DNA of 64,000 nucleotides, taken from positions 61,256,001-61,320,000 of the forward strand of contig OX638150.1 in NCBI GenBank assembly GCA_951804945.1, written 5' to 3'. Below, in pieces: positions 1 through 35,152 of the stretch. Source of the stretch: Podarcis cretensis (Eukaryota). Made by a program: the position numbers and the translations under genes. The stretch's first letter is position 1, and each line of letters opens with the position of its first letter. Below the pieces are notes generated by a model. It did no database searches. It saw only the letters and a program-made list of their open reading frames with translations, and was not told where the DNA came from.

Positions 1-541
1 TTGTGAGTCACTCCCACCAGATGTGCCTGAATTTGCCTACAGCTGTTTCTAGTGGTTTCTAAAAACAGTTTTGATGGTCACCACACTGAACAGCTTAGCT
101 GCTTTTGACCTATTCAGAAACAACATAGATACCACTATAGGCACAAATTATTGCACTAGCCTAGCATGAACTGTATAAGGGATTCCACATTTGATTCTCA
201 CCTCCTTCCAGACCATCCAACCTTGTCATAACATTTCTCTTTCAAGGTCCATTGCCCTTGATTGTCCCTTGCTTTTGATGACAGATTTGGTGATGGAGTT
301 GTAGCAAAAAGCTCTGGCAACATGGACAGTTTGCTATGGCTTCTGTGGACCATGCCCAAATTCCTCAAACTGGCTTGTATGTTGGACTTTTGATTCTTAT
401 TTGAGTATCAATCTTGCCATCATGTCCTTTGTAGGCTTTCCAAAGGTGGGAAACAGGCCACTGAGCCAAATCACCCTTTGGTCTGATGTATCAGGGCTCA
501 AGCAAATTGTATAATTATTACATTATTATCATAAAGGTTAC

Positions 542-619
542 CTTGAGAGCTTCCAAGATTCTACCATCGTAGTCAATTACTACTGTATCACCCTGTTCTC
601 CTTTCAGGCCTGGAGGACC
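542..619 (-). CDS. COL23A1: COL23A1 exon, 78 nt, GPPGLKGEQGDTVVIDYDGRILEALK (end of COL1 plus NC2)
   Basis: tttctttgtag|GGT...AAG|gtaacc; diagnostic NC2 motif. Confidence 0.97.
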
Positions 620-1714
620 CTACAAAGAAAAGAAAAGGTAATTGTAAACTTTATGGGAATAGAAATAATTTTCTGCTTTTCACATGCTATTAAGAAGTCA
701 CAGTAAATTCTAGTTTCATACTTAAATACGGTGCTTTAATTGCTACAGTCTAGATAATAACTGTTCACTGGATGAAAGTGGAATAAACCACCTATGCTGT
801 GACAGTCCCATTAAGGCCCATTGGGTACTGGAGGTCCTACTCTTAGAGCCATCATTAGTTAAGATAACCTTGGCAGATGCTTTTGCAGTAGTAGCAGCAC
901 AACTACGGAATTCCTCCACCAGGGAAATCCTCCAAGCACACCCTCAATGTCATGAGCTATGAAAATATTTTTATTCCTCTATGCTTTGGCACAACAATCC
1001 TATGCTTGTCTACTCAGGAGTAAATAAGAAGTCAGATTCCAAAAGAGCTTATTCAAAGGAAAGCAGCTATAGGGCTGCAGCCAAACAGTGCAATTCTCTA
1101 TGTAGGTCTACTCAGTAGTAAATCCCCTTTGAGTTCAATGATGGAACCACCCAGTTAAGTGTGTCTAGGGCTGCAGTCTAAATCTTACTGTCTCTTCACA
1201 CATCTTGCACCCACCTCCATTTCTGTTGGACCTTTTCTCTTAAGCGCCCAGCCCCCCCCCCCGGCTCCAGCCTCGCAGGTGGAGCCAAACACCATAAATA
1301 ACTGCCCCCTCCTCCTGGATCAGTCTCCTGCCCTCTTCTCTCTGCAATCAGGGAACTGCCAGTCCCTGACAATGATTCATGACGTAGGTCCTGGGGCAAA
1401 ATGATTCGAATGCACTTCTATATGGAAGGCAGAGATGTCATAGCACATGGAACCTCCCTTTGAGGTTTTCAATGGCCTATAAAAGTCAAAACTAGTACCC
1501 AACCCATTTTATAAGTCCACACACAAATGTCAAAGACTGAAATTCAAGGAAACTATTTTCTACTCCAGAATATTTATACTGATTGTATTATTGCCAACGG
1601 GGAAAATCCCTAGCTTTTGCATAGTTAATTTATCTTCCACAAATCTCACAGTGTATTCTTTCAGCTTGAGTGTTTATTTTAGGGAGCTAAAGAAAGAACA
1701 AAAGTAATTCATAC

Positions 1715-1759
1715 CCTTGGCCCAATGTGTCCATCTGCTCCTCTTTCACCAGGTTCACC
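1715..1759 (-). CDS. COL23A1: COL23A1 exon, 45 nt, GEPGERGADGHIGPR
   Basis: tttcag|GGT...AGG|gtatg; corresponds to human GEPGHRGTDGAAGPR. Confidence 0.95.
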
Positions 1760-2914
1760 CTGAAAATAAATGTTTGTTACTCTAAAATATTGATTCAGAG
1801 ACAAGATACGTCACATATCTATGTGTCTTGAGGAGCACAGCATAAGCAATAGCAGGCTTAAAAGACCTTCACACAATCCAGCTGCAAAACAAATCAGCCA
1901 AATCAGATACAAGATAATAAAACTGCCCTGCAGGTTTTAGTGTAACAATATGCACACCACACTGCTGCAAAACCAACTAACTTTTGAACAAGAAATTAGC
2001 CTGGCATATAAAATTAATCATGTCATGATTATACTTTTGCTTTCACATATTGTATTTTGTGCTTGCATTGTTTACACTGTCAAATATTTCTTCTTGTAAT
2101 CTCTGTAGTTTATGAAAAATTAACATGGCAAGTAGCAAAAAGACACTCTAGCACGTCAAATCTTTATAAATTAAGATAGTTGCCACATTTACTGTAGGTA
2201 TTCTGAACCTCACGTTCTTCAGTTTTCCAGCATAAAAAGAGCTATAACCTAATAAAGAGGAAGCTAAGTTTGATGCAGACTTCATGAAATACAGATCCGC
2301 TCCAAAGGATTAGCAACTTGTTTAAATGGATGTAGCACAAACAAATGTTTCCTTTTCTCCACTTCAAGACGGAGACTCATGAAAAATTACATAATCAATT
2401 CTAAAATGTTTTATCATGGAATGAACAAAGAGGCAATTAAAAGAACACTCTTTTCCCATCTTCCTAACTGATCGAACAGAGAAGCATACCAATGAATACT
2501 GGTTCAAGCCATACATTTTTGCCCCCTCTCTGCTGGCTTGCTCCACTTCCTCCTTCAGTGGGGAAAAGCTAATAAGTTCGGCTGGGTGGGTGCTTCAGAA
2601 AGCAAGAAAGGTCTCACCATTATGGTCATATGTCAGGGGCATCTAGCTCAATGCAGCTGGCCAGTTTACTGTTTTATTATTTCATATCATACCTATCTTC
2701 TTTCCTGGAAGACTGAAAAAGTAGGAGGCTTAAATGAGACTTGCTGTTCCTACAGTAATGCAGCTCTGTGTGCATCATGGCAGGTTTTTAAAAATGCAAA
2801 TTGTAATTGCTTGGTGGGCAGGATAATTACCAGAGGCAATATGGAGAGGGAATTTAATTCTGCTGTAGTCCAGGGAAAACAATCCTTTTCTGTATCTGGT
2901 ATTTGATTTCAAAG

Positions 2915-3064
2915 GAGCTCAGTTGGTTAGAGCCTGGTGCTGATAACGCCAAGTTTGCAAGTGCGATCCCCGTATGGGCCAGCTGCATATTCCTGCATTG
3001 CAAGGGGTTGGACTAGATGATCCTTAGGGTCCCTTCCAACTCTACAATTCTAGGATTCTATGAA
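2915..3064 (+). mobile_element. tRNA-derived SINE with CR1-type tail (POM-like)
   Basis: A-box-like agctcagttggttagagc; tail ggactagatgatcc...ccttccaactctacaattctaggattctatga. Confidence 0.75.
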
Positions 3065-3588
3065 TCAAATAGGGATTATCAAAGGTGATTTTCTCAGCCC
3101 CTCAGCAGAGGAAGAAAGGGTTAGATTCTTTCTCCATATTAGCTCTGACATTACTAATTATCAATAACCCCCCAAAGCAATTTGCATTGCAAAACATTTG
3201 CAGGTTAAATGCAAATACACTTTTAACTCAAGTCTAGACTAGGCATCCTTCTTAAATGGAGATTATAATTTATTTATATTTCATCTATAGGTCTTCATTT
3301 TGCTTTGAGCCTGACATTCAGAATAGAATAGGGGTCAGCACCCCTTTTGGGTTTGTGGGCACAGTTGCAATCTGAAGAAATTTCAATTTCCCCCCCTCAA
3401 GCCTATTTTTTGGGGGTGGGCAGTGGAAGCAAGAGCACCCCAGCTGCAATCTCCAGAAAGATCCTCCCCACAAAAATCCCTCTATGTTGGACACTGCATT
3501 GGTGACCCATGGAACAGAAAATCTTCAGGTAATAAAGAAACCTGCAGCTCATATGATACAATGCCCTAGAAGAGGCTGATTACAGATA

Positions 3589-3827
3589 CAGTGTGGTGTA
3601 GTGGTTAAGAGCGGTGGACTTGTAATCTGGTGAACCGGGTTCGCATCTCGGCTCCTCCACATGCGGCTGCTGGGTGACCTTGGGCTAGTCACACTTCTCT
3701 GAAGTCTCTCAGCGCCAGTCACCTCACAGAGTGCTTATTGTGGGGGAGGAAGGGAAAAGGAGATTGTGAGCTGCTTTGAGACTCCTTAGGGTAGTAATAA
3801 AGCGGGATATCAAATCCAAACTCCTCT

Positions 3828-3830
<3 letters not shown>
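3589..3830 (+). mobile_element. tRNA-derived squamate SINE (Squam3/CORE-like)
   Basis: cagtgtggtgtagtggttaagagc...gggttcg...gggtgaccttgggctagtcac; reverse-orientation relative at 57104-57323. Confidence 0.75.
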
Positions 3831-3858
<28 letters not shown>

Positions 3859-5173
3859 TTGGAAAAGGACTCGCAACTCTTGAAAATATTTCAGTTCTCT
3901 ATTTTCCTTGGGCTAATGTTATGCTGATCATGCGAAACAAAGATACTTATGCTATTTTACATTCCATCCTGTTTTCATGATACAGTATTTCAAAACTAAC
4001 CTATTTGCTTCTTCCTGTTACCAGAGCATATAAACATGCCATCTATGAAATAATGTCGTTTGCTGTAGGGACTTATAAAATTTGTACACTCCATTGTCAT
4101 TTCCTGTACTGGTAATCAAATTATTGAATTGCTATGCATTAAATTAATTAGCAGATTCAGGTTTGTGTGCGTGTGTGTTTTTTTTTTACTCTGCATGTCT
4201 TTATGTTAGAATGATTCTACATTTTTTTCCAAAAAAAATTAATGCAGTATTGTTTTTTATCCTATATTAGCAGAGAAAATGAATGTTCTATCTTAATTTG
4301 CCTTAATTTGGCAGTTTTTGTTATAATTTAATGATGCCTGTTGTGGAGGACAGAGCTCCATAAGTGCAGGATAAAACATTCAAAGAGCCAGGGTTTGAAG
4401 TCATTAGGTATGGGAAGTTGGATGTGCAGCACCAGAAGCCCTGCTAGCACACTAGCAATTTCTGATAGCTATGTGCCAATACCAGCCAAGGCTCATTCCA
4501 TCGCCATCCTCCCATGTGGAAATCCAAGTGCATACAGCTCTTTAAACCACACTAGCTGCCCTGCTTTTCAGCATTCGCCATCACATAGACAAAAGGGCTC
4601 AAGCTGTCTCACCAATTCAACATGAAACGGAATTTCGTGTGAACCTGGACCTCGCCATTTCACAGTAAGCATGCAAATACCCTGCTCTGCACCATTCATG
4701 TCTTGTGCGTGTTCCAAAAGTAAAGCATACATCGAGAATCATATGGAAAAGAAGAGGCTTGGGAGGGGAAGGAGTTACATAAGAAAAGAAGCAGTTGGGG
4801 AGCAGATTAAGCAGGACCCTCCCAACACCTCTCTGATCCAAAATTGTCATCTTCCTCAAACAAAAATGACCACTTGTGTTTTGATGCATACATTTGATTA
4901 CCATGTTTCATTTTGCTCTCCGTTACCAAGCAGGGTTAATACTAGTCTTGGGCTATGATCCAAGGGAAGTCTTCTATATGTGTAATTTTTCAGCTACAAA
5001 AATTTTCTTCAAATGTCTGATAAGCTGCTCCTGAATGTTGGAGAGCATGGCAGTGAAACATCCCATTAGATGTGAGGGGATGCTGCTGTAAATGCAAGTT
5101 GCAATTTCATTGCAAATGAAGCATTTTGCATGTTCGTATCCAGACCTTACTATCCTTCCCATTTGATACTTAC

Positions 5174-5236
5174 CTTTGGCCCTGGTAGACCATTTATTCC
5201 ATTCACTCCTATTGGGCCAACACTTCCTGGTTCTCC
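5174..5236 (-). CDS. COL23A1: Array exon copy 20, GEPGSVGPIGVNGINGLPGPK
   Basis: 63 nt, cag/gtaagt; followed by the 3.4-kb intron. Confidence 0.85.
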
Positions 5237-5327
5237 CTGTAATGTTTGAAGGAGGTGCAATGGAAAACTCTCAGTTTCTAAGCAGGCCAGGTGCTAGTCT
5301 CACTATCCTTTCCAATGTGATACTTAC

Positions 5328-5390
5328 CTTTGGCCCTGGAAGGCCATCTGTACCTTTCTCTCCTGTTGGGCCAACACTTCCTGGGTCTCC
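5328..5390 (-). CDS. COL23A1: Array exon copy 19, GDPGSVGPTGEKGTDGLPGPK
   Basis: 63 nt, cag/gtaagt. Confidence 0.82.
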
Positions 5391-5481
5391 CTGTAATGTT
5401 TGAGAGAGGTGCAATGGAAAACTCTCAGTTTCTAAGCAGGCCAGGTGCTAGTCTTACTATTCTTTCCCACGCGCCACTTAC

Positions 5482-5544
5482 CTTTGGCCCTGGTAGACCA
5501 TCTATGCCTTTGTCTCCTGTCGGGCCAGGGCTTCCGGGTTCTCC
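5482..5544 (-). CDS. COL23A1: Array exon copy 18, GEPGSPGPTGDKGIDGLPGPK
   Basis: 63 nt, cag/gtaagt. Confidence 0.82.
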
Positions 5545-5810
5545 CTGAAATGTTTGAAAGAGGTGCAATGGAAAACTTCCAGGGCTGGATCCAGATTCTG
5601 CTAGCAGAAGCCCACACAAGGCATTCTACTAGCACAATTTCCTTCCCTCTCCTCCCCCTGTGCCCTGTCATTGGCTGGAGTGGGTGGGAGAACCCCCAGA
5701 TCAGTGGGGGCAGGGTAGGAGAGGAGAGATTGTTTTGTTAAGCAAGCAGATATGCTTGCATTGATATGAGTGATGCCTAACCTCACTATCCTTTTCCATA
5801 TGCTGCTTAC

Positions 5811-5873
5811 CTTTGGCCCTGGTAGCCCATCAATGCATTTGTCTCCTACTGAGCCATTGCCTCCTGGTTCTCC
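5811..5873 (-). CDS. COL23A1: Array exon copy 17, GEPGGNGSVGDKCIDGLPGPK (Gly->Cys)
   Basis: 63 nt, cag/gtaagc; TGC at a Gly position (5835-5837). Confidence 0.7.
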
Positions 5874-5962
5874 CTGTAATATTTGAAAGAGGTGCAATGG
5901 AAAATGCAGTTTCTAATCAGGGCATGCGCTAATCTTACTATCCTTTCCCATGCGCTGCTTAC

Positions 5963-6025
5963 CTTTGGCCCTGGTAGACCATCTATGCCTTTCTCTCCTA
6001 TTGGACCAGGGCTTCCTGGTTCACC
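5963..6025 (-). CDS. COL23A1: Array exon copy 16, GEPGSPGPIGEKGIDGLPGPK
   Basis: 63 nt, cag/gtaagc. Confidence 0.82.
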
Positions 6026-6517
6026 CTGCAATGTTTGAAAGAGGTGAAATGGAAAAGTCTCATTTTTTAAGCAGGGCAATAAGACCAGTACAAGCAGCTG
6101 GACATCTGGGAGGCTGGGTAAGAAGACTCACCACCACTGCCCTCCTCAGCACTGCCCTCTGTTTCTGTCAGCCTCTTCTGGAGGACAGATGAGGAAGCCA
6201 GATGTGAAGCATCTAGTTAAAAGACCATTATTCTGCTGTACTGTATTTATTGTCTGTTAACTTTCATTTTGTTCTGTACTTAGGCGTTAGGTCTAGAGTA
6301 TATTTTTGTAATATTGAAGACAGTATATTCTATGTTTCTTGCTGAATTGTTGTTGTGTTTACAAAACTGCCTTCTCCCCAATCAATGTTTTGCAGTTTAA
6401 TAGGAAAAGGGGACATTGTTGTAAGCTGCTTTAGGAACAGCTCACTGTGCAAAGGTGCCATATACATAAACTTAAATGAACTAAACAATCTGACAATCTT
6501 TCCCGTGCTCTGCTTAC

Positions 6518-6580
6518 CTTCGGCCCTGCTAGACCATCTAAGCCTTTCTCTCCCGCTGGGCCAATGCTTCCAGGTTCTCC
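6518..6580 (-). CDS. COL23A1: Array exon copy 15, GEPGSIGPAGEKGLDGLAGPK
   Basis: 63 nt, tag/gtaagc. Confidence 0.8.
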
Positions 6581-6671
6581 CTATGATGTTTGAAAGAGAT
6601 GCAGTGGAAAACTCTCAGTTGGTAAGCAGGGCATATGCTAATCTTAGCATTCTTCTCCATGCACTGCTTAC

Positions 6672-6734
6672 CTTAGGCCCTGGTAGCCCATCTATGCCTC
6701 TCTCTCCCACTGAGCCAGCGCTTCCTCGTTTTCC
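6672..6734 (-). CDS. COL23A1: Array exon copy 14, GKRGSAGSVGERGIDGLPGPK
   Basis: 63 nt, cag/gtaagc. Confidence 0.8.
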
Positions 6735-6821
6735 CTGTGGTGTTTAAGGAAGGGCAATGGAACTCTCAGTTTCTGAGCAGGTATCATCAAGTCTTAGTAT
6801 ATTTTCTGATGTGCTGCTTAC

Positions 6822-6884
6822 CCTTGCTCCTGGTTGCCCTTTTATGCCTTTTTCCCCAGTCTGACCAATGCTTCCTGGATTTCC
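6822..6884 (-). CDS. COL23A1: Array exon copy 13, GNPGSIGQTGEKGIKGQPGAR
   Basis: 63 nt, cag/gtaagc; strongly diverged but all 7 Gly kept. Confidence 0.8.
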
Positions 6885-6976
6885 CTGTAGTGTTTGAAAG
6901 AGGTGCAATGGAAGACTTTAAGTTTTCAAGCAGGGCATGTGCTAAATCTTAGCCGTCATTCCCATGCACTGCTTAC

Positions 6977-7039
6977 CTTTGGCCCTGGTAGCCCATCCAT
7001 GCCTCTCTCCCCTGTTGGGCCAATGCTTCCCCGGTTTCC
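6977..7039 (-). CDS. COL23A1: Array exon copy 12, GNRGSIGPTGERGMDGLPGPK
   Basis: 63 nt, cag/gtaagc. Confidence 0.8.
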
Positions 7040-7133
7040 CTGTAAATTTTGAAAGAGGGAGAATGGAAAACTCTTGGTTTCTTAGCAGGCTATGTGCTTA
7101 GGATCTTGTTATCCTTTCCCATGTAATACCCAC

Positions 7134-7196
7134 CTTTGGCCCTGGTAGACCACTCATGCCTCTTTTTCCCACAGGGCCAATGTTTCCTGGTTCTCC
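7134..7196 (-). CDS. COL23A1: Array exon copy 11, GEPGNIGPVGKRGMSGLPGPK
   Basis: 63 nt, cag/gtgggt (the only donor in the array that is not GTAAG). Confidence 0.78.
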
Positions 7197-7287
7197 CTGT
7201 ATTATTTGAAAGAGGTGCAATAGGAAACTCTAAGTTTCTAAGCATGGATTGTGCTAATCTTAGCATTCTTTCCCATGCACTGCTTAC

Positions 7288-7350
7288 CTTTGCCCCTGGT
7301 AGACCATCTATGCCTCTCTCCCCTACTGGGCCAGGACTTCCTGCTTCTCC
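7288..7350 (-). CDS. COL23A1: Array exon copy 10, GEAGSPGPVGERGIDGLPGAK
   Basis: 63 nt, tag/gtaagc. Confidence 0.8.
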
Positions 7351-7439
7351 CTATAGTGTTTTTAAAAAGGTGCAATGGAAAACTCTGTTTCTTAACAAGA
7401 CATGTGCTAGTCTTTTATCAACTCCCATGTGCTCCTTAC

Positions 7440-7502
7440 CACTGGCCCTGGTAGACCATCTATGCCTCTTTCCCCTACTGGGCCAGGACTTCCTGCTTCT
7501 CC
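7440..7502 (-). CDS. COL23A1: Array exon copy 9, GEAGSPGPVGERGIDGLPGPV
   Basis: 63 nt, cag/gtaagg. Confidence 0.8.
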
Positions 7503-7593
7503 CTGTAGTGTTTAAAAGAGGTGCAATGGACAACTCTCAGTTGCTCACCAAGGAAAGTGCTAGCCTTTTTATCCTTTCTCATGCACTGCTTAC

Positions 7594-7656
7594 CTTTGGC
7601 CCTGGTAGACCATCTATGCCTCTCTCCCCTACTGGGCCAGGACTTCCTGCTTCTCC
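7594..7656 (-). CDS. COL23A1: Array exon copy 8, GEAGSPGPVGERGIDGLPGPK
   Basis: 63 nt, tag/gtaagc; identical to copy 7. Confidence 0.8.
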
Positions 7657-7748
7657 CTATAGTGTTTTTAAAAAGGTGCAATGGACAACTCTCAGTTGCT
7701 CACCAAGGAAAGTGCTAGCCTTTTTATCCTTTCTCATGCACTGCTTAC

Positions 7749-7811
7749 CTTTGGCCCTGGTAGACCATCTATGCCTCTCTCCCCTACTGGGCCAGGACTT
7801 CCTGCTTCTCC
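7749..7811 (-). CDS. COL23A1: Array exon copy 7, GEAGSPGPVGERGIDGLPGPK
   Basis: 63 nt, cag/gtaagc. Confidence 0.8.
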
Positions 7812-7903
7812 CTGTAGTGTTTTAAGAAGGTGCAATGGAAAACTCTCAGTTTCTCACCAAGGCAAGCACTAGCTATTTTTATTCTTTCCCATGCACTGCT
7901 TAC

Positions 7904-7966
7904 CTTTGGCCCTGGAAGACCATCTATTCCTTTGTCTCCCATTGGGCCGACACTTCCTGGTTCTCC
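7904..7966 (-). CDS. COL23A1: Array exon copy 6, GEPGSVGPMGDKGIDGLPGPK
   Basis: 63 nt, cag/gtaagc. Confidence 0.82.
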
Positions 7967-8056
7967 CTGGAGTGTTTATAAGAGGTGCAATGGAAAATTT
8001 TCAGTTTCTGAACAAGACATGTGCTAGTCTTTTATCCATTCCCATGTGTTCCTTAC

Positions 8057-8119
8057 CTTTGGCCCTGGAAGACCATCTATTCCTTTGTCTCCCATTGGGC
8101 CAACGCTTCCTTGTTTTCC
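8057..8119 (-). CDS. COL23A1: Array exon copy 5, GKQGSVGPMGDKGIDGLPGPK
   Basis: 63 nt, cag/gtaagg. Confidence 0.82.
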
Positions 8120-8209
8120 CTGTAGCATTCAAAAGAAGTGCAAAGAACACACTCATTTTCTAAGAAGGGTGTTCATCAGTTTTACTGTACCATTCAAGAA
8201 GATGCTTAC

Positions 8210-8272
8210 CTTTGGCCCTGGTAGACCATCTATTCCTTTTTCTCCCATTGGGCCAACACTTCCTGGTTCTCC
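8210..8272 (-). CDS. COL23A1: Array exon copy 4, GEPGSVGPMGEKGIDGLPGPK
   Basis: 63 nt, cag/gtaagc. Confidence 0.82.
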
Positions 8273-8363
8273 CTGTAATGTTTGAAAGAGGTGCAGTGGA
8301 AAACTCTCTGCTTTTAAGCAGGCCAGGTGCTAGTCTTACTATTCTTTCCCATGCACCACTTAC

Positions 8364-8426
8364 CTTTGGCCCTGGTAGACCATCTATGCCTTTGTCTCCC
8401 ATTGGGCCAGGGCTTCCAGGTTCTCC
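8364..8426 (-). CDS. COL23A1: Array exon copy 3, GEPGSPGPMGDKGIDGLPGPK
   Basis: 63 nt, cag/gtaagt. Confidence 0.82.
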
Positions 8427-8517
8427 CTGTAGTGTTTAAAAAAGGTGGAGTGGAAAACTCTTAGTTTTTGAGCAAGGCAAGTGCCAGTCTTTTTATGCTT
8501 TCCCATGCGCTGCTTAC

Positions 8518-8580
8518 CTTTGGCCCTGGTTTACCGTCTATGCCTTTGTCTCCCATTGGGCCAACGCTTCCTTGTTTTCC
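8518..8580 (-). CDS. COL23A1: Array exon copy 2, GKQGSVGPMGDKGIDGKPGPK
   Basis: 63 nt, cag/gtaag, intact Gly-X-Y. Confidence 0.82.
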
Positions 8581-8670
8581 CTGTAGCGTTCAAAAGAAGT
8601 GCAAAGAACACTCTCATTTTCTAAGAAGGGTGTTCATCAGTTTTACTGTACCATTCAAGAAGATGCTTAC

Positions 8671-8733
8671 CTTTGGCCCTGGTAGTCCTTCATTGCCCTT
8701 CTCACCTATGGGCCCAATACTTCCTTGTTCTCC
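8671..8733 (-). CDS. COL23A1: Array exon copy 1, GEQGSIGPIGEKGNEGLPGPK
   Basis: 63 nt, attaatctcag|...|gtaagc; its upstream acceptor is not of the repeat type. Confidence 0.92.
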
Positions 8734-9103
8734 CTGAGATTAATACAAATTAAGGTGAACATTACAATCTTGCTTTCACCCCAAAGTCCAAATATTGAGC
8801 ATCCTTCAAAAAGAAGTCAGGCTCTAAATGACAGTCTTTAAACATGGTACAGCTGTTCTGATGGCTATTCAAGTTATTCTTTAAGAATGGTTGAGCCCCA
8901 TAGGACCACAGTGAAAGGGAAAAACAATCTTTAATTTCTGATTCAGTTTGCTCTGTGTAGTGTAGAATATGACTCTCAATCACCAAATATATTTAGGATT
9001 GAAATTTAATATGATCAGCCTGTATGCCAATACTGCATTGATTCTACTTTGTTACCCATAATATATATGATTGGGGGCGGGGAGCTACAAAAAGGAAGTT
9101 TAC

Positions 9104-9148
9104 CTTTGGCCCTTGAATCCCTGGTTCTCCTGGGATTCCAGCATCACC
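9104..9148 (-). CDS. COL23A1: COL23A1 exon, 45 nt, GDAGIPGEPGIQGPK
   Basis: catcag|GGT...AAG|gtaaac; corresponds to human GDDGTPSQPGPPGPK. Confidence 0.93.
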
Positions 9149-10183
9149 CTGATGAAATAGAACACACATAGGTGACACTGAAATACAAAAGTGCATTAAG
9201 TTTCCCAGGGTCAATGCTGGCAGAAGCTCAACAGTTCACACTGTAAGCCTAACCAGAAAAGCAACTGCCAAATATTTTTGATCCAGAAGTTGGGACTTAA
9301 TTTCTAATACTTAATTTCTAACTGTTCAGAGAGAGAGAGCTTTAATTTATTAGCTCAGAGTAGTCTTATTTGCAGTGTGGATAAATCATGAAGACATCAC
9401 TCATTATCTGTGGAACACACTGAAATGTAATCCTTAAACGTGCTTCCTAAAAATACTGTAGCCATAGGTTATGTGCAGTTCTGAACAGCATGCATTAATA
9501 ATAAAGTGTTTTCCAACTTGGCCACAGCTACTTGGTGGCCCTTCTAAGGTCCTTTATATGGAAAAGGATATTTAGCTAACACAATCCAAAATAAATACAC
9601 ACATATCCTGCCCCTGACTCAGCTGCCTTGGAGAAATATATACAGATATTTGTTTCTTAAAAGCCCAGTCCAGATATTCGCAAACCACTCCATTTGGACA
9701 GTTTCTAGAGGGGTAGCTGTGATCACTTCTTGCAGCAAGAATGGCAGAGTCTTGTTACACCTTAAAGACTGTTATGGCAGAAGCTTTCATGTACTGGATC
9801 AGCTTCAGGGATACAACAGCACAGAGTGAATAATGTTTGATCTATCATATCCATGGATGGGTGAGCCCCATGTGATTAGCCCTGATTACAATGCAAAAGT
9901 TACACAACTCCCCTGCAGTTTGGGATGTTGGTGGATGCTACTGAAATCTCAAGAGCTTTGCTCCTCCCTTGCTCATTCTGCTGCTGTGCTGGGCAAGAAA
10001 CAAACCACAGTCTGCTCTGGATCAGAGGGTTGCTTTGTGCTATTGTATTGCTGGTTTTTTTGTTTTTTTGTTTTAAAAATGCTTATTTTAAATGTGTTTA
10101 GTAGTTTTAACTGCCATGTTATTTTACTTTCAAGTTGGAGATATTTTGTGACTCTGTTGTGATAACTGAGTTGTGAGGTGGAA

Positions 10184-10233
10184 ATAGATAGATAGATAGA
10201 TAGATAGATAGATGATAGATAGACAGATAGATA
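10184..10233. repeat. (GATA)n microsatellite
   Basis: Direct reading. Confidence 0.9.
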
Positions 10234-10296
10234 GGGTTGGGAACATGATGTCTGAATGCAAATAGCATTTGAAAGAAAGAAACATAAATAACTTAC

Positions 10297-10323
10297 TTTT
10301 CCTCCTGGAATACCAGGCTCACC
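10297..10323 (-). CDS. COL23A1: COL23A1 exon, 27 nt, GEPGIPGGK
   Basis: tttgttttgaag|GGT...AAA|gtaagt; human GEPGVPGKK. Confidence 0.92.
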
Positions 10324-12038
10324 CTTCAAAACAAATAAACGAAGAACGTTATGTTTGACATACAAAGATCAGGAATGAAAACATTTTTTCTCCAATGTCT
10401 AGGAAATGTTACAAATAAAATTGTACCGTTTTCAAAAAACATACGCAGCCAAGCTCATTAAAAATGCTGCTGGGCTGTCAGTCTTTCTGGGGCCCAAAGG
10501 TTGATTTATTTGCAATTTAGAGGAAGTGTCTTGGGCACCTATATAAAACGGCTGTTGGGTGTAACCAGTCACAAAACTTAAATAGAAACACAATACCTGA
10601 GGCCATCCAACGAAGCTGAATGTTGGAAGATTCAGAAAAAGGAAACACTTTTTCATACAATGCATAGTTAAAACTATGGAATTCCTTACCACAAGCTTTA
10701 AAAGTGAATTATTGGGGTAGGGAGAGAGAAAGCCCCACTGCACAAACAGAAGCCCTTGTGCTGACAGGACTCACTAGCTGAATCCTGCCCACTATGCCCT
10801 TTCCTCACCAGCAGGTCTCAGGATGGATTTCAGCATTTTTTAATTCAGTAAGGAAAAACAGTCAAAACAAATTACAGTCACAGGAATAGGGTGGGTCCTC
10901 AAAACACAATGGGAATAATTCAGCTTAGAGCTAAGGAGATTGCTCTGTCAGCACGAGCAGTTCTGCTCGCCTGCTATAACAATCTCCCTCCCCTCTGCTC
11001 ACAGGCTGTTCTGGGGGGTTCTTTCAACTCATCCTAGCCTATTGGTGGTGGGGTGGGGGACAGTGGGGGCACACAGTGTGAAGAGAGCTTCTGAGAATAT
11101 ACCACAAACCACCCACATATGTTTAGCAGCCATGTGGAAACATTCCTCTTCTTCCAGGCCTTTGCCTAATTAAACAACCTATGGCCTTTAAAAATCTCTC
11201 TGTGTGGAGGTGTTGTTTTATTTGTTATTATGTTATGTATTTTTGTGTGTTTATACTGTAAACTGTGCTGTGATCCTTGAATGAAGAGTGGTATATAAAT
11301 TTAATAAATAAAAATAAAAATATTTTTTTCCCCCACTCATGGCCTGTGATCTTTTATGTCAAGATGCTGTAAATATAGTACCCTTGAAAGGCTTGTGAAA
11401 GGGCAGTGGGTCATCCGTGCAGTAGCATGCACAGGATGCAGAAGTGGAAATGGGTATTTCTCCTATAACGAAATATCACTTGGGAGTTAAGTTTGCTTGC
11501 ATGGTATCTTATTACAAATGTTCTGACACTTAAAAAGAGGTCAGCAAGTCTTTTGATAGTCTAGGTTTTGGTACTCGTAGTTCTCATGCACGACAGTCAG
11601 TGCATGTAGCGATTTAAAAAACACAACAATATCGATGTAAAGAAATAACCTAAATAGGTCCTGACAAAAGAGCATATGCGAAATGTCTGTAGGACAACAA
11701 AAGACGGAAGAGAATGAAAAAGTGCTTTGGGAAAGAGGCTCACCTTATTTTTTCTGATGGTGCAGTACAGAAAACTGACTCGTAAAAACAGGCAAGACTC
11801 TGACTGTTTCAAAGCCCTAGACAATTAAGCCTGACAATTGTTCTAAACTCAACGTCATGTATTTAGGGGTAGTGATTAGATGGCCAAAGCATAGTCAAGG
11901 AAAGGAGCTGTATAAAACTATTATAGAGCAGAAAGAGGAAGAGGAACACATCTGAGGTAGGCTAGGCAAGCTTCTCATGCTTAATATGTGAAATCAATCC
12001 ATTAGGATATGTTTTGATACCATAGATTGCATACTAAC

Positions 12039-12074
12039 CATGATACCAGCTTCTCCAGGTTCTCCTTTCTCACC
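12039..12074 (-). CDS. COL23A1: COL23A1 exon, 36 nt, GEKGEPGEAGIM
   Basis: ttctttag|GGT...ATG|gttagt; human GPKGEPGQDGEM. Confidence 0.92.
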
Positions 12075-12957
12075 CTAAAGAAACACAAATCTAAGTTATT
12101 TAAATAAAGAGACAATGAATACATTTCTAAAATTACTTTTTCAAAACGCTCCCCTCCCACCTAAAAAGCACAACAGTGAAGAAGAGAAGCTTAAGGAGAT
12201 TGCGTTATTTCAGTTATTTCATTGACTTAGGGAACGTAGAAATGTTGCCATGTCTTGATGATTTAGATTAGTGTTATTAATAAAGTGAAAATACATACAG
12301 GTATGCTATGGTTCTATTTATTATGGATTAACATTGAACACATAAACTGTATCTCATCTCAGTTATCTTTGCTTGGTAGATAATGACTGTTAAGTCTCCT
12401 AATTCAACAGTAGGGGATTTAGTGATTAATTTAATGACTAAGGATTGAGTATGAATGGCTAGGTAATAAAAGGCTAGTGTGAAGATCATTTTTATGACAC
12501 AACTACCGCTTGCCCTACAGAACAATCCCATAGGCACTGCCAAAAAATTGCTGCTGCAGCAGCAAGGGAAACTCGAATGTTGATAAACCCCAAAGCCTGC
12601 CATATTGCTAGAATCTACAAGCAGAATTGTCAAAATATTAGCTGCTCATTGCAAAATGCAAGATAACCATTCCAAGGCAAGCCGCCACCACAAAGCTTTG
12701 TTGACTAGATTATCATCCCTGCTCAACGCAAACAGTTTGAAGATGAGTTCTGCCTCTGGTTTCAAGATATTGAAGAGTGATTTCCCTTCGCTCTTACTCT
12801 TTGCTTCAAAAATGCCTGTATCCTCCACCTAGCGCCTTGATACATCTGAGTTCTAGGCTCAGGAAGTTACAGTTGAAATGCATTCATGAGCAGGATATCC
12901 CCGCAAAACATGCATTTTAGTTTTCAGCAGTTATCTTAGCTAATAACTACGCCTTAC

Positions 12958-13074
12958 AGGAAGGCCTGGGGGTCCCCTTGGGCCATCTTTTCCCGTGTCT
13001 CCAGGGGGCCCTCTTGCACCCGGCTGTCCAGGAGGACCTGGTGGACCAGCAGCGCCATCATTACCTTGATCCCC
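12958..13074 (-). CDS. COL23A1: COL23A1 exon, 117 nt, [39 protein letters not shown]
   Basis: cttatag|GGG...CCT|gtaagg; very close to the human segment. Confidence 0.97.
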
Positions 13075-15179
13075 CTATAAGAAGTTTAGACAAAACATCG
13101 CAATGTGAAAAAGAAAAGAAAAACACAAGTCCTTATGGGTGGACTGTGGCTGCAAACTCACTGCATAGCAAAATGAGAGAAGGAAAGAAAGAAAACAGGA
13201 CACATGGTCAGGGAATCAGTATGTTTGAGTTTAAAGATAAAACCTTGAGCCTGCAAACTGACTGACCTTTCTATGGTACGTAAACTTACTGAAAGAGAAG
13301 AAATTTATGTCTGAGGTTTCTTGGTGTTTGTTTTATTCTTCCAAACAATTCATCTAATTACAAATATTGGTAATTAGTATTTCTAACTCATCCGTGCCCA
13401 ATTTGTGTGCCTGCATTGTACAGAATGGCGTATTGTGTTTCTGATACCGACCAGTTTTGAGAAATGATTAGTGAAAGGTCTTTTCTCTTCCAATGAGAAA
13501 CAGGTAAGGCAACTAAAGAATGAACCCCAGTTCTTTAAATACCACAGTACGCGAGAAAGTAAGACAGAAAACTACCACCCGGATTATGCTTGTAAAACAA
13601 CATTTGCAAAACTAGATTCTTTATCTGAGTATACATATAGTAAAGCAAATCTTTAAAATATTCAAAAATGCTAAGCCTCCAAATTAGCGTTCCAGTTTAT
13701 TTTTACATGGATAACTTAAGAGTTCTGGCATCTAGAAGATGCCAGAATTACTGTAATTATTACATTTATATCCAGCCTTTCTTTCACAGACATAAATGGA
13801 ATTGATTTTTATGTAGGGTTCAAAAGTATTCTCCCATCCAGGTATTGACCAAATCCAGGCTTGCTTAGCTTCAGCAAATTTGTTGCATCATGTGTCTTTA
13901 GATCATACCTAATTTATTATCTTGGGGGGAAGGCGGAATCTAGTAACTTTCTGAATTTTTTTTTTACAACATTTTAATGCATTCTGTAAAAAACACAAAT
14001 CATTGATTATAAAGGAGAAAGGGTTGGATGTCACAGCAAGAATACACACAGATGTAGAATGCTAGCATACATTGCACACCATGCTCATGGAGCGCGCACA
14101 TTTACTATCAACATCTAGTGAACACAAGAGAAGACTCAAAACAGATATAATGTTGGTTGTATAATAAATATATCAATTATGTAATAAGTGCACTAGTAAT
14201 CTGGTCACAATCTACAGAATTATGCAACTGTGTGAGCAGCAGAGCTTTTTATTTCCTGTTTTCAAATAAGAAGACTTTTATCCTTAAATGACAAGCAGCT
14301 TTTTATATGTTAAACAAGTTTCCAAAAGGACTTGCAACAAAGCATAGCCAGATATTTCATTTCTGATCATGAATTCTACACTTAACCTTTATTTCATGTA
14401 CAGAGCATACAGACCCTCTTTCTAAGGCAGGCCACACTTATTTCATTTTTACTAAAGCCAAGAGAATGGTTTCTTTCAGAGAGCTTCTGGCTAAAGCAGA
14501 GAATTGACACCAGGTCTCCAAGATCTATCATTTAGATGACCATGGCTGCCTATTAACATTACTGTTCCTGGGGTTATGATCTACTGTGGGTAAGTTGGGG
14601 TGAAGAGCTCAGCATCTAGAACTGGTCTGCTTGAACATATGGAAGCAGCACTGAAACCCCCCATGATAAGGGTGGATTATAAAGCTCTTTATAACATCTG
14701 GGCAGGATGTCTCCAGTGACAGACTTGTACTTAAAGTCATCCTGCTATAAATCAAAAACCTAACAGTGAAAGCCATTCTACATTCCAGTTCAGAAAGCCA
14801 TACTACCAAGGTCCAGTTCAGAAAATTCCCTCACTGAGCAATGATATGAGTACAAGATAAAAACAAATGGACCTAGCTCTATAAAATTTCTCAGTATATT
14901 ATTATTTATTATCATTTATTTTATACACCAACATATTTTTATTCACAAAATATGCAGGCATCCTCCAGCTATAATCCTGAAAGTACAACATTTCAAAATC
15001 AGAGTCAGTCTTCAAATGCTCTGCATCCAATAAATCAGAAAGAATGGTCCTTGACAAATTTGCCGTTTTTAAGCAAATCTTGTGTGCAGGGACCATATCA
15101 CTTATGTATTCTGTACTGTGTGTGGAACTCTGTACATATAGTTGTGAACCTAGATAGGTCACTCTAAACTCAGGTGTCT

Positions 15180-32599: not shown

Positions 32600-33580
32600 T
32601 GTTATGAGTTCAAGGGTGCCAGACTCCCTTAAATTCCTGCACCCAGTAAGTGTTAGAATTTAATCAAGCCTCCTGAATTCTTGGATCCAGCAGGGGGTTA
32701 AAATATAAGCCAAGCTAGCTTCCCCATGGGGTAATCACCTGACCAACGGGCAATTAAGAGAACAAAGGGGAGGTGATGAGCCATTAAGGAACCAAGGAAA
32801 AGGGGCTCTGTGCCAGACAGCAAGTGGGCGGTGCCCCTCCTCCTTCTCTTAGTTAGACAAAGCAGGAGTTTGGAGGACAGAGTTGGCTGTGATGTGAACT
32901 AGAGGAAGAAGATGCAGGCTGGAAAGGCTGAGAAAAAGCCATGGCTGATTTTCTGCTTGAATCTAAGACTGCGGCTATGGGAGAAACAAGACCCTTTGGG
33001 GTGTTAATGCTGTGAACCCCTCCATCATAGCCTCAGGTTGTATATATTTGCAAATAAACCAACTATCATAAAGAAGGCTGATCGCCGAAGAATTGATGCT
33101 TTTGAATTATGGTGCTGGAGGAGACTCTTGAGAGTCCCATGGACTGCAAGAAGATCAAACCGATCCATTCTTAAGGAAATCAGCCCTGAGTGCTCACTGG
33201 AAGAACAGATCCTGAAGCTGAGGCTCCAATACTTTGGCCACCTCATGAGAAGAGAAGACTCCCTGGAAAAGAGCCTGATGTTGGGAAAGATTGAGGGCAC
33301 AAGAAGAAGGGGACGGCAGAGGACGAGATGGTTGGATAGTGTTCTCGAAGCTACCAGCATGAGTTTGACCAAACTGCGGGAGGCAGTGGAAGACAGAAGG
33401 GCCTGGCGTGCTCTGGTCCATGGGGTCACGAAGAGTCGGACACGACTAAACGACTAAACAACAACAAATCATAAGGACACCACGGTCTTTGTGCCTCATT
33501 GCTGAAAGGAAACATGGACTCTCGGTGAGTGCCTGGAACCCCTGGAATCTCGTATTGCTCAGAGATTGGAGTGGCATGCT
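32600..33580 (+). mobile_element. Probable solo LTR interrupted by a Bov-B fragment
   Basis: Starts TGTTATG, has AATAAA just before the insertion, and appears to resume after it; boundaries uncertain. Confidence 0.4.
33068..33467 (+). mobile_element. 5'-truncated Bov-B (RTE) LINE
   Basis: Open frame IKKADRRRIDAFELWCWRRLLRVPWTARRSN...HGVTKSRTRLND typical of the Bov-B C-terminus; (CAA)n tail. Confidence 0.92.
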
Positions 33581-33662
33581 CATAGAATCATAGAATAATA
33601 GAATCATAGAATCATAGAGTTGGAAGAGACCACAAGGGTCATCGAGTCCAACCCCCTGCCAA
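33581..33662 (-). mobile_element. CR1-type 3' tail fragment
   Basis: (CATAGAAT)n followed by gttggaagagaccacaagggtcatcgagtccaacccc. Confidence 0.75.
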
Positions 33663-35152
33663 GCAACCGTTTGTTTCCTGGGTTTCTTTTCTGGTCTGAG
33701 TGCAGCTTCCAGAAAACACCAGACACAAAATAGAACTAATCCATAAGACATGCCAACATAACTCTATTTCAGAGCTGAACTGCTGGCAACAACAAGAAGA
33801 AAACATGTTGCTAAATGAAGCAAAGGCACGTCTGGCTGCCACATGGATGTTGGAGTCAACACCCTGGATATGATTGTCCTGGGGTTTCATGACCTGCCAT
33901 AGGCAACACACCACCTGAAGGCACATATGCTGCTTCAAAGTACAAAAACACACAATGGTTTATTTATAGACTAATTTATAGCAGTAAAAATATATATAGA
34001 AAAAAATGCTGGGTGGGTGGGGATGGAATGTAAGATTCAAACATGTTTCTTTTAATTGTAAAATGTACTGTAACATTTATTCTACACCTTTACAGGCATG
34101 AAATGTGACATTTTATTTTTAGAGTAAATTCTTAGATTCAGAAATATTTAGTCTGCTTTAAGATTCGCATTAAAAAACCCCAAAAACAACAACAACGAAA
34201 CAACAACCCAGAAATAAGGTACTTAAATAACCTTCAAATTTTATGTTGGGAGTGTTTGTGCATGTTTGGTCCTGGCTTGCAGCAGCAGCAGTTACATTTG
34301 AAAACCAGATTTATTTGGTGGGAAAATATTTATTTGGTGGGAAATTCACACCCAAGCAAACAGTGAATCTGTCATGCTCTCTAGTGCAGAGCACAGTTAT
34401 TATGACTACTGACTACCTTAAACACATTCCTCTCCCAGTCCACAACACAATGTCAGGCTGATCATCTTCTCTCCCACAGGCTTTTCTCAATGCCACACTG
34501 AGCTGCAAATTAGGTAATTAGTAAGCACGCTATTGTATATGAACGCTTATGGTTTTGTCTTCCCTCTCAGAACTTGTGGCAGCATGTGTGAAATGTTTTA
34601 AGAGGAAAACATGTTGAATGGAGTCTGCATGAACAACTGGGGGAAAGATAATTGCCAGCATCACGACGGATGAATGAAGACAGCTATTAAAATACAACAT
34701 ACAAGACAACGCAGTATTAATGACTATTAGCCAGGTAGCTCAATTGAACCTCCATGGGCAGGAGCAGGTCATATCAGCTGGATACGAAGATCAGACAATG
34801 TCAGCATCTTTCTTTATGCCTTGGGTGACTTTAAAAGAGGATTTCACAGATTCAAGGAGAAGCCCATCAACAGTCCATCTACCAGCCAGGGTGGCTATGT
34901 CCCGCCTCCACTGATATTGGCAGCATAGTCCTGAAATACCAGTTGCTGGGCAGAGTGCTCTTAAGCTCAGGACCTGCTTATGGGCATCTCATAGGCTTCT
35001 CTGGTTGGTCACTGTGAGAACAGGACATTGGATTGGACAGGCCAGCAGGCTCTTCTTATATTCTTATGCCTGACTTGATTTTTTCCCTAGGGGCATTAGG
35101 CAAGCCTGGGTTGAAAAACAATGGGCCTTGATGTGATTCAGCAACCCATATA

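Follow-up and report, generated by a model that had tools for sequence, protein, structure and literature searches.

How is a collagen gene read when one of its helix exons stands twenty times in a row? The question is raised by this window of 64,000 nucleotides of a vertebrate, likely a lizard, whose repeated segment had been proposed in a first-pass annotation to act as a cassette array with a splice-tunable helix length. Probably, the locus represents a 20-fold amplification of a helix exon of COL23A1, spliced either as one copy or with neighbouring copies joined, in which copies 2 to 20 likely form an optional block that would make the collagen rod up to 399 residues longer.

The array and its host gene

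On the minus strand, a Gly-X-Y exon of 63 nt, in phase 0-0, is repeated 20 times in tandem from 8733 to 5174, with a unit of about 154 bp (period of 154 by TRF). The limits initially proposed, 5237 to 8670, enclose a real array but correspond to the stretch between its first and last copies. All 20 copies are preceded by AG and followed by GT, and each encodes seven whole triplets without stops or indels. The acceptors are similar to one another and A-rich. Such an arrangement is far beyond chance. Copy 1 (8671-8733), at the ancestral position and with its own upstream intron, differs from every other copy by 13-20 nt in the pairwise matrix, copies 7 (7749-7811) and 8 (7594-7656) are identical, and copy 13 (6822-6884) is the most divergent of the set. 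Among the 20 copies compared, the sole loss of a Gly is found in copy 17 (5811-5873), where codon 5837-5835 encodes Cys. Any subset of copies was expected to keep both frame and Gly-X-Y register; the frame is indeed always kept, but subsets with copy 17 bear one helix imperfection. Likewise, an intron length of about 90 nt describes 17 of the 19 array introns (87-94 nt) but not intron 15 (492 nt, after copy 15 at 6518-6580) nor intron 17 (266 nt, after copy 17), both lengthened by insertions.

A 140-nt exact repeat inside the array indicates that unit duplications are recent and still going on. As to the origin of the unit, the array introns begin with 30 nt that they share with the intron following copy 20 (equalled by 0 of 300 shuffles); their ends are likewise shared, though more weakly, with the intron preceding copy 1 (9 of 300 shuffles). 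A segment of ~154 bp, made of the end of the upstream intron, the exon and the start of the downstream intron, would thus have been duplicated and then multiplied by unequal crossing-over. An assembly artefact was considered and discarded, as 0.69-0.87 of the array words recur in DNA-size runs under two organism labels (5 of the 24 listed runs) and the order of copies 13-16 and 2-4 is the same in contigs of a third label. No array-like sequence was detected elsewhere in the window (sensitive blastn, best E 0.68), nor any match in Rfam for positions 1-14000 or to a 26-nt pattern in metagenomes.

By the order and sequence of its exons, the host gene is COL23A1 and not COL13A1, which had been taken as the model gene. 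The gene covers the window, with exons from 62200 to 542 on the minus strand. Those upstream (62200-62174, 25269-25243, 24616-24590, 22780-22754, 13074-12958, 12074-12039 and 10323-10297) follow the order of human COL23A1, and a comparison by eye with the human alignment in PMC4678570 supplement 1 matches exon order and sequence to collagen XXIII, a MACIT, and not to XIII or XXV. The exon at 619-542, with the diagnostic non-collagenous segment, matches the HsXXIII row alone among the human XIII, XXIII and XXV sequences of that supplement. The exons found in the window do not include those for the N-terminal transmembrane segment, coiled coil and furin site or for the conserved C-terminal cysteines. 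Protein searches with the diagnostic exon gave short unnamed ORFs only, the PDB search and ESM Atlas were uninformative (generic collagen in the latter), and in one homologue search none of five candidates passed. The homologue and representative searches returned no long collagen XXIII protein, nor any full-length COL23A1 among the matches listed, which in one of them were 120 of 246 collagen hits.

Splicing of the array

Splicing was followed in RNA from a relative under a different organism label, with an intron divergence of about 3% (28 letters of 853 differing), through four of the 24 listed runs: X22 and X23, as raw reads, and X1 and X8, as contigs. The reads examined make up about 12% of two runs. 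The last two, X8 being the one examined of the small-share runs X6-X14, are RNA by guess and also hold unspliced contigs, about as deep as the array joints. The raw reads, 22 and 19 in the two runs (about 11 and 10 fragments), are all oriented (41/41) as expected for minus-strand RNA in a usual stranded library, their depth is confined to exon-containing bins, and the joints end at CT..AC. The 45-nt upstream exon U (9104-9148) is spliced to copy 1 in all four runs, including every raw read on U (2/2 and 9/9), so that copy 1 looks constitutive. A loose end at 8670 matches window positions 1729-1758, within the 45-nt downstream exon D (1715-1759), and the resulting short form U-1-D is the deepest contig in both X1 (81.6) and X8 (53.5), with array-junction contigs at 3-9% of that depth. 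A gene expressing only a long collagen XXIII with all 20 copies would fit X22 taken alone, but these dominant contigs running from copy 1 straight into D make it scarcely credible.

Within the array, six adjacent joints are listed: 2-3 (copies at 8518-8580 and 8364-8426; three reads of X22), 10-11 (7288-7350 and 7134-7196; three reads of X22), 11-12, 12-13 (copy 12 at 6977-7039; X23, X1 and X8), 13-14 (copy 14 at 6672-6734; three reads of X23) and 17-18 (copy 18 at 5482-5544; 4 + 2 reads), with two more deduced. The donor of copy 11 is GTGGGT, and four loose ends of copy 14 in X23 run into a copy-15-like start. The first-pass annotation had anticipated this joining of neighbours, as opposed to mutual exclusion, and had set a single constant isoform as the outcome that would disprove its proposal; instead, the one-copy form and the neighbour-joined forms coexist. 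Neither joint 1-2 nor joint 20-D was observed directly in this comparison, where D lies outside the stretch matched to reads and joints in fewer than three reads are unlisted; the donor of copy 20 (5174-5236), the last, is where read depth ends. No read or contig of the four runs covers the whole block, and full 20-copy transcripts are putative.

A Dscam-style choice of a single copy per transcript, a mechanism to which tandem duplicated exons are often tied according to PMC9013439, finds some basis in the introns, which are short and have some motif-predicted candidate branch points at 46-52 nt from the donor. The pyrimidine tract quoted in the annotation is present, and the AACTGAG motif that it ascribed to many units lies about where it was placed (its A 56-58 nt past the donor, leaving 32-36 nt to the intron end), though in 7 of the 19 introns only; a looser yTnA motif occurs at 32-36 nt from the end in 11 of the 19. 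No compact docking or selector helix was found; the duplexes obtained were loose and only a few kcal better than those of control introns. A candidate docking site near 4515-4555, to which about 10 of the 17 best duplexes point, was rejected: the pairings there are extended and loose, and their ~13-bp core is within reach of chance. Together with the reads on U that always join copy 1, the joining of adjacent copies rules out such exclusion unless the joints come from a separate aberrant pool, leaving it with hardly any probability.

A different possibility, a combinatorial ladder in which copies 2-20 are each chosen largely independently to give many lengths in 63-nt steps, is favoured by the symmetry of every copy, by the likeness of their A-rich acceptors and by one joint between copies 13 and 16, skipping 14 and 15. 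This skip is unambiguous, since copy 13 is at least 6 letters away from any other copy over its last 28 nt, and copy 16 (5963-6025) at least 4 over its first 28 nt, but it comes from a single X1 contig of depth 3.8 flagged 'between: not known'. Three reads joining two copy-4-like exons (copy 4 at 8210-8272), a 4-4 joint that 'goes back 63', could also be a 4-6 skip; their partner is ambiguous, copies 5 (8057-8119), 6 (7904-7966) and 20 being only 3-5 nt from copy 4. A listed 3-17 joint was not accepted as a long skip, as copies 3 and 16 are the same over their final 30 nt and the joint's short side spans 27-28 nt. Overall, 20 of the 24 raw-read joints and loose ends listed inside the array are adjacent, one is best read as adjacent, three are ambiguous and none is a clear skip. 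Coverage is patchy, with no depth on copies 13-15 in X22 nor on 3-10 in X23, no raw reads on copies 6 and 9 (7440-7502), and depths of about 1 on copy 5 in X22 and copy 19 (5328-5390) in X23 and about 2 on copy 16 in both, a pattern that also fits about 5-10 fragments. Moreover, chains of unequal length would be expected to loop out of the trimer. With a single listed internal skip in one contig, the data agree chiefly with a short/long switch, even if rare skips, unlisted below three reads, could be spread through the array. Of the 63-nt ladder as first proposed, neighbour joining and one skip are thus observed and freely chosen subsets are not seen; independent choice of copies is unlikely.

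Selection on the copies and a probable splice-controlled length

Changes were counted by parsimony on the tree of copies 2-20 and compared with the expectation from intron rates. The first two Gly positions accumulated one change over 14 sites where 34 were expected (P 5e-14) and the AG/GT letters none in 76 against 9.8 (P 6e-5), whereas Gly third positions behaved neutrally (14 changes vs 17 expected). In this line, pN/pS falls to 0.026 for Gly, against 0.83 for X/Y. Gly codons and splice sites are under strong purifying selection, while X/Y positions drift. Exon synonymous divergence (0.28) is close to that of introns (0.26), and conversion therefore does not account for the conservation of Gly.

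These figures bear on a leaky and functionless inclusion, in which a selfish minisatellite would have its copies kept harmless as they are sometimes spliced in. Inclusion below 10% in the two contig sets, near-neutral X/Y positions and the still recent duplications agree with it, but loss of splice sites would offer an easy harmless route that no copy has taken, all copies stay open despite 26% intron divergence, and array depth equals that of the flank in X22. Such a reading is quite improbable. In X22, mean depth is 1.9 over copies 2-20 and 2.1 over exon U; in X23, the two values are 0.9 and 9.0. This difference in inclusion between the runs does not reach significance (Fisher p about 0.06-0.08, with approximate fragment counts).

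A splice-controlled length switch is likely. The decision would fall at the copy-1 donor, which would be spliced either to D or to copy 2; in the latter case most copies would follow in order over the ~90-nt introns, and inclusion of the block would vary by tissue or stage. The long chain would then be translated, trimerise with like chains and reach about 114 nm further, at the rise of 0.286 nm per residue of the collagen helix. A more elaborate version, where regulated skipping makes the block a ruler turned on in particular cells, with steps of ~6 nm over ~114 nm, matched chains and a copy-17 Cys that may lock their register, is tentative and rather doubtful; if true, the reach of a transmembrane collagen would be set by splicing in a lizard lineage.

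Comparison with known systems

Duplication of small Gly-X-Y exons is regarded as the way in which collagen helices grew, and the COL23A1 array would offer a living case of such growth, its added piece kept optional by splicing. It is also a natural experiment on chain matching by the cell, in a trimeric collagen whose splice forms would be up to 399 residues apart. A long form of collagen XXIII particular to this lineage is suggested by the data; the protein has been proposed as an epidermal ligand of integrin alpha2beta1 (PMC7465455). No published report of the array was found in the literature searched, which covered few subscription papers.

In human collagen XXIII, the 21-residue segment encoded by the array exon is present once, against 20 copies here (PMC4678570 supplement 1). 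Skipping of collagenous exons is known for collagen XIII and C. elegans col-99, and the MACIT splicing described in PMC4678570 deletes single non-repeated exons, whereas here an amplified block of 19 exons is likely optional; the same source regarded COL23A1 splicing as not adequately documented as of 2015.

Dscam1-type clusters likewise have tandem homologous exons and short introns, but in COL23A1 neighbours are joined, and transcripts are not restricted to one copy without adjacent joints. Titin PEVK and CD44 variant exons are also numerous, small and symmetric, and their inclusion sets length or reach; theirs, however, are disordered segments of a single chain, ancient and conserved, and not a recent amplification within a triple helix. 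Another parallel is the FNIII array of tenascin-C, a matrix protein that likewise has homologous cassette exons in tandem, some duplicated within one lineage. For this array, according to PMC4422809, 511 forms are possible, fewer than 100 have been recorded and some cassettes are preferentially co-included. In COL23A1, frame-preserving homologous exons are similarly either skipped altogether (U-1-D) or included together (adjacent joints), with intermediate combinations represented by the 13-16 contig in a table that omits rare joints. A tenascin-C cassette is an independently folded domain, and that of COL23A1 is seven triplets of a three-chain helix, so that lengths would have to match across chains. 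The COL23A1 array is, in sum, a tenascin-C-like cassette array, a known kind in a new form.

The exon array of COL23A1 and its gene

The array is genuine: it is expressed, its copies evolve under selection, and they undergo alternative splicing. A similarity scan found exactly 20 copies of the 63-nt Gly-X-Y exon on the minus strand, from 8733 to 5174, with a repeat unit of ~154 bp. All 20 copies have AG before and GT after them, begin with a Gly codon and carry neither stop nor indel. The array introns measure 87-94 nt in 17 of 19 cases, the other two (492 and 266 nt) carrying insertions. These insertions, in introns 15 and 17 (6064-6480 and 5580-5780), have no second copy within the window; contigs of set X8 agree with the intron 17 insert over part of its length and then diverge, which suggests a dispersed repeat. 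The exact branch motif of the first-pass annotation occurs in 7 of the 19 introns, at the distances given there. Of the words of 6500-9160, DNA-size runs under two organism labels contain 0.69-0.87, and the copy order is preserved in contigs of a third label; the array is thus no assembly artefact, nor is it confined to one genome.

Judged by exon match, the gene is COL23A1. The exons flanking the array follow the human collagen XXIII order in a by-eye comparison with the alignment of PMC4678570 (supplement 1), and exon 619-542 encodes a non-collagenous segment typical there of XXIII, unlike XIII or XXV. At the position of the 20 copies, human COL23A1 shows a single 21-residue segment in that alignment. 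Exons for the transmembrane and C-terminal parts are not among the COL23A1 exons found in the window. Between the counterparts of exons 12074-12039 and 10323-10297 the human protein also carries a Gly-X-Y piece of 9 residues (PMC4678570, as aligned). No exon for it was found in 10324-12038, and its neighbours are joined directly at loose ends of X23, X1 and X8, so it was likely lost in this lineage. Two 27-nt collagen exons whose human counterparts are neighbours in the protein are set apart here by an intron of 37 kb (25270-62173). At 2915-3065, 3585-3830 and 33060-33700 lie SINE- and LINE-like elements that have short tandem tails and are presumably of the kind found in lacertid lizards; SINE appearance points to a lizard, probably one of the lacertids, as the animal of origin.

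Constraint, age and turnover of the copies

Parsimony changes were counted on a tree that covered copies 2-20; copy 1, whose upstream flank lies outside the repeat, was for that reason omitted. The 14 first and second Gly positions show 1 change against 34 expected at the intron rate, and the AG/GT letters none against 9.8, whereas third Gly positions (14 against 17) and X/Y positions (84 against 103) approach expectation. Pairwise comparison of all 20 copies gives a pN/pS of 0.026 for Gly, against 0.83 for X/Y, and synonymous divergence among copies (0.28) matches that of introns (0.26). The copies are thus maintained as spliceable and helix-compatible, with side chains drifting. Gly is lost at 1 of 140 positions, to Cys in copy 17 (codon 5837-5835); among the rows shown (41 others are not), no variant letter is listed there for four reads of the raw RNA run X22, so this Cys is likely common to the window and the RNA organism. 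Six GxxGER motifs (in copies 7-10, at 7288-7811, and in copies 12 and 14) and six GxxGEK motifs occur in the array; they look like integrin-binding collagen motifs, without the usual hydrophobic residue at position 2.

The copies differ from one another ~8 times as much as the window does from the RNA organism (28 letters in 853), from which we infer that the array predates their split. Copies 7 and 8 are identical and the array holds a 140-nt exact repeat, which shows continuing turnover. Units 1-3 and 4-6 resemble a three-unit duplication (period 461; 73-nt exact repeat). At their start the array introns resemble the intron that follows copy 20 and at their end, more weakly, the one preceding copy 1; the unit thus has the look of a simple segmental duplication. 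Near copies 4-7 (7700-8300) the RNA organism seems different, with a loose end at 7788 and two copy-4-like exons joined to each other; this hints at lineage differences in copy number or order.

Splicing of the array

RNA was mapped on 5050-9250 from 4 of 24 listed runs, namely two raw stranded RNA runs, X22 and X23, of which ~12% each was covered, giving 22 and 19 reads, and two contig sets, X1 and X8, tentatively regarded as RNA. Raw-read depth is confined to exon-containing bins. The upstream exon U (9104..9148) is joined to copy 1 in all four runs, and every raw read on U reaches copy 1 (2/2 and 9/9 by depth). Copy 1 passes directly to the downstream exon D in both contig sets (depth 81.6 and 53.5; the loose end matches 1729-1758). 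That all copies are constitutive fits poorly and is hardly credible.

Joints between adjacent copies have CT..AC ends: 2-3, 10-11 and 13-14 (3 reads each), 11-12 (two contigs), 12-13 (1 read and two contigs) and 17-18 (4+2 reads), the last well used despite the intron 17 insertion. The 14-15 joint is consistent with four loose ends. A joint given as 3-17 is best read as 16-17, and 3 reads join two copy-4-like exons, the partner copy being ambiguous. One contig (depth 3.8) joins 13 to 16, unique in sequence on both sides and flagged 'between: not known'. Free choice among copies, in 63-nt steps, is a minor possibility. Among the tabulated joints, those with at least 3 reads, 1-2 and 20-D were not seen directly, and no mapped read or contig spans the whole block of copies 2-20.

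Array joints reach 3-9% of the short form (U-1-D) in the contig sets, where unspliced contigs occur at similar depth. Leaky inclusion of the copies fits poorly and is improbable. Read depth on the array roughly matches that of the flank in X22 and amounts to ~10% of it in X23; the contrast between the two runs is no more than suggestive (p 0.06-0.08, from approximate counts of fragments).

Proposed mechanism and known systems

A constitutive ancestral copy 1 followed by an optional 19-copy block is the reading we consider probable. The splice choice would be made at the copy 1 donor, and a transcript entering the block would include the copies mostly in order over the short introns, now and then skipping some. 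From the exons found in the window, the collagenous part amounts to 159 residues for the short form and 558 for a chain with every copy; the latter would add ~114 nm of predicted helix, from the textbook rise per residue. A juxtamembrane coiled coil unites the chains of a MACIT (PMC4678570); a mostly two-state, cell-level switch may avoid trimers of unequal chains.

PMC4678570 describes exon skipping among MACITs for collagen XIII and for col-99, and treats it as poorly documented, at that time, for collagen XXIII. The literature searched contained no report of a 20-copy COL23A1 exon array. No full-length COL23A1 of any form came out of the protein searches, which are therefore uninformative on an annotated long form. 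Mutual exclusion of the copies fits poorly and is most improbable: the array lacks the defining feature of mutually exclusive exon clusters. No docking or selector helix was found. The array works like the cassette array of tenascin-C (PMC4422809).
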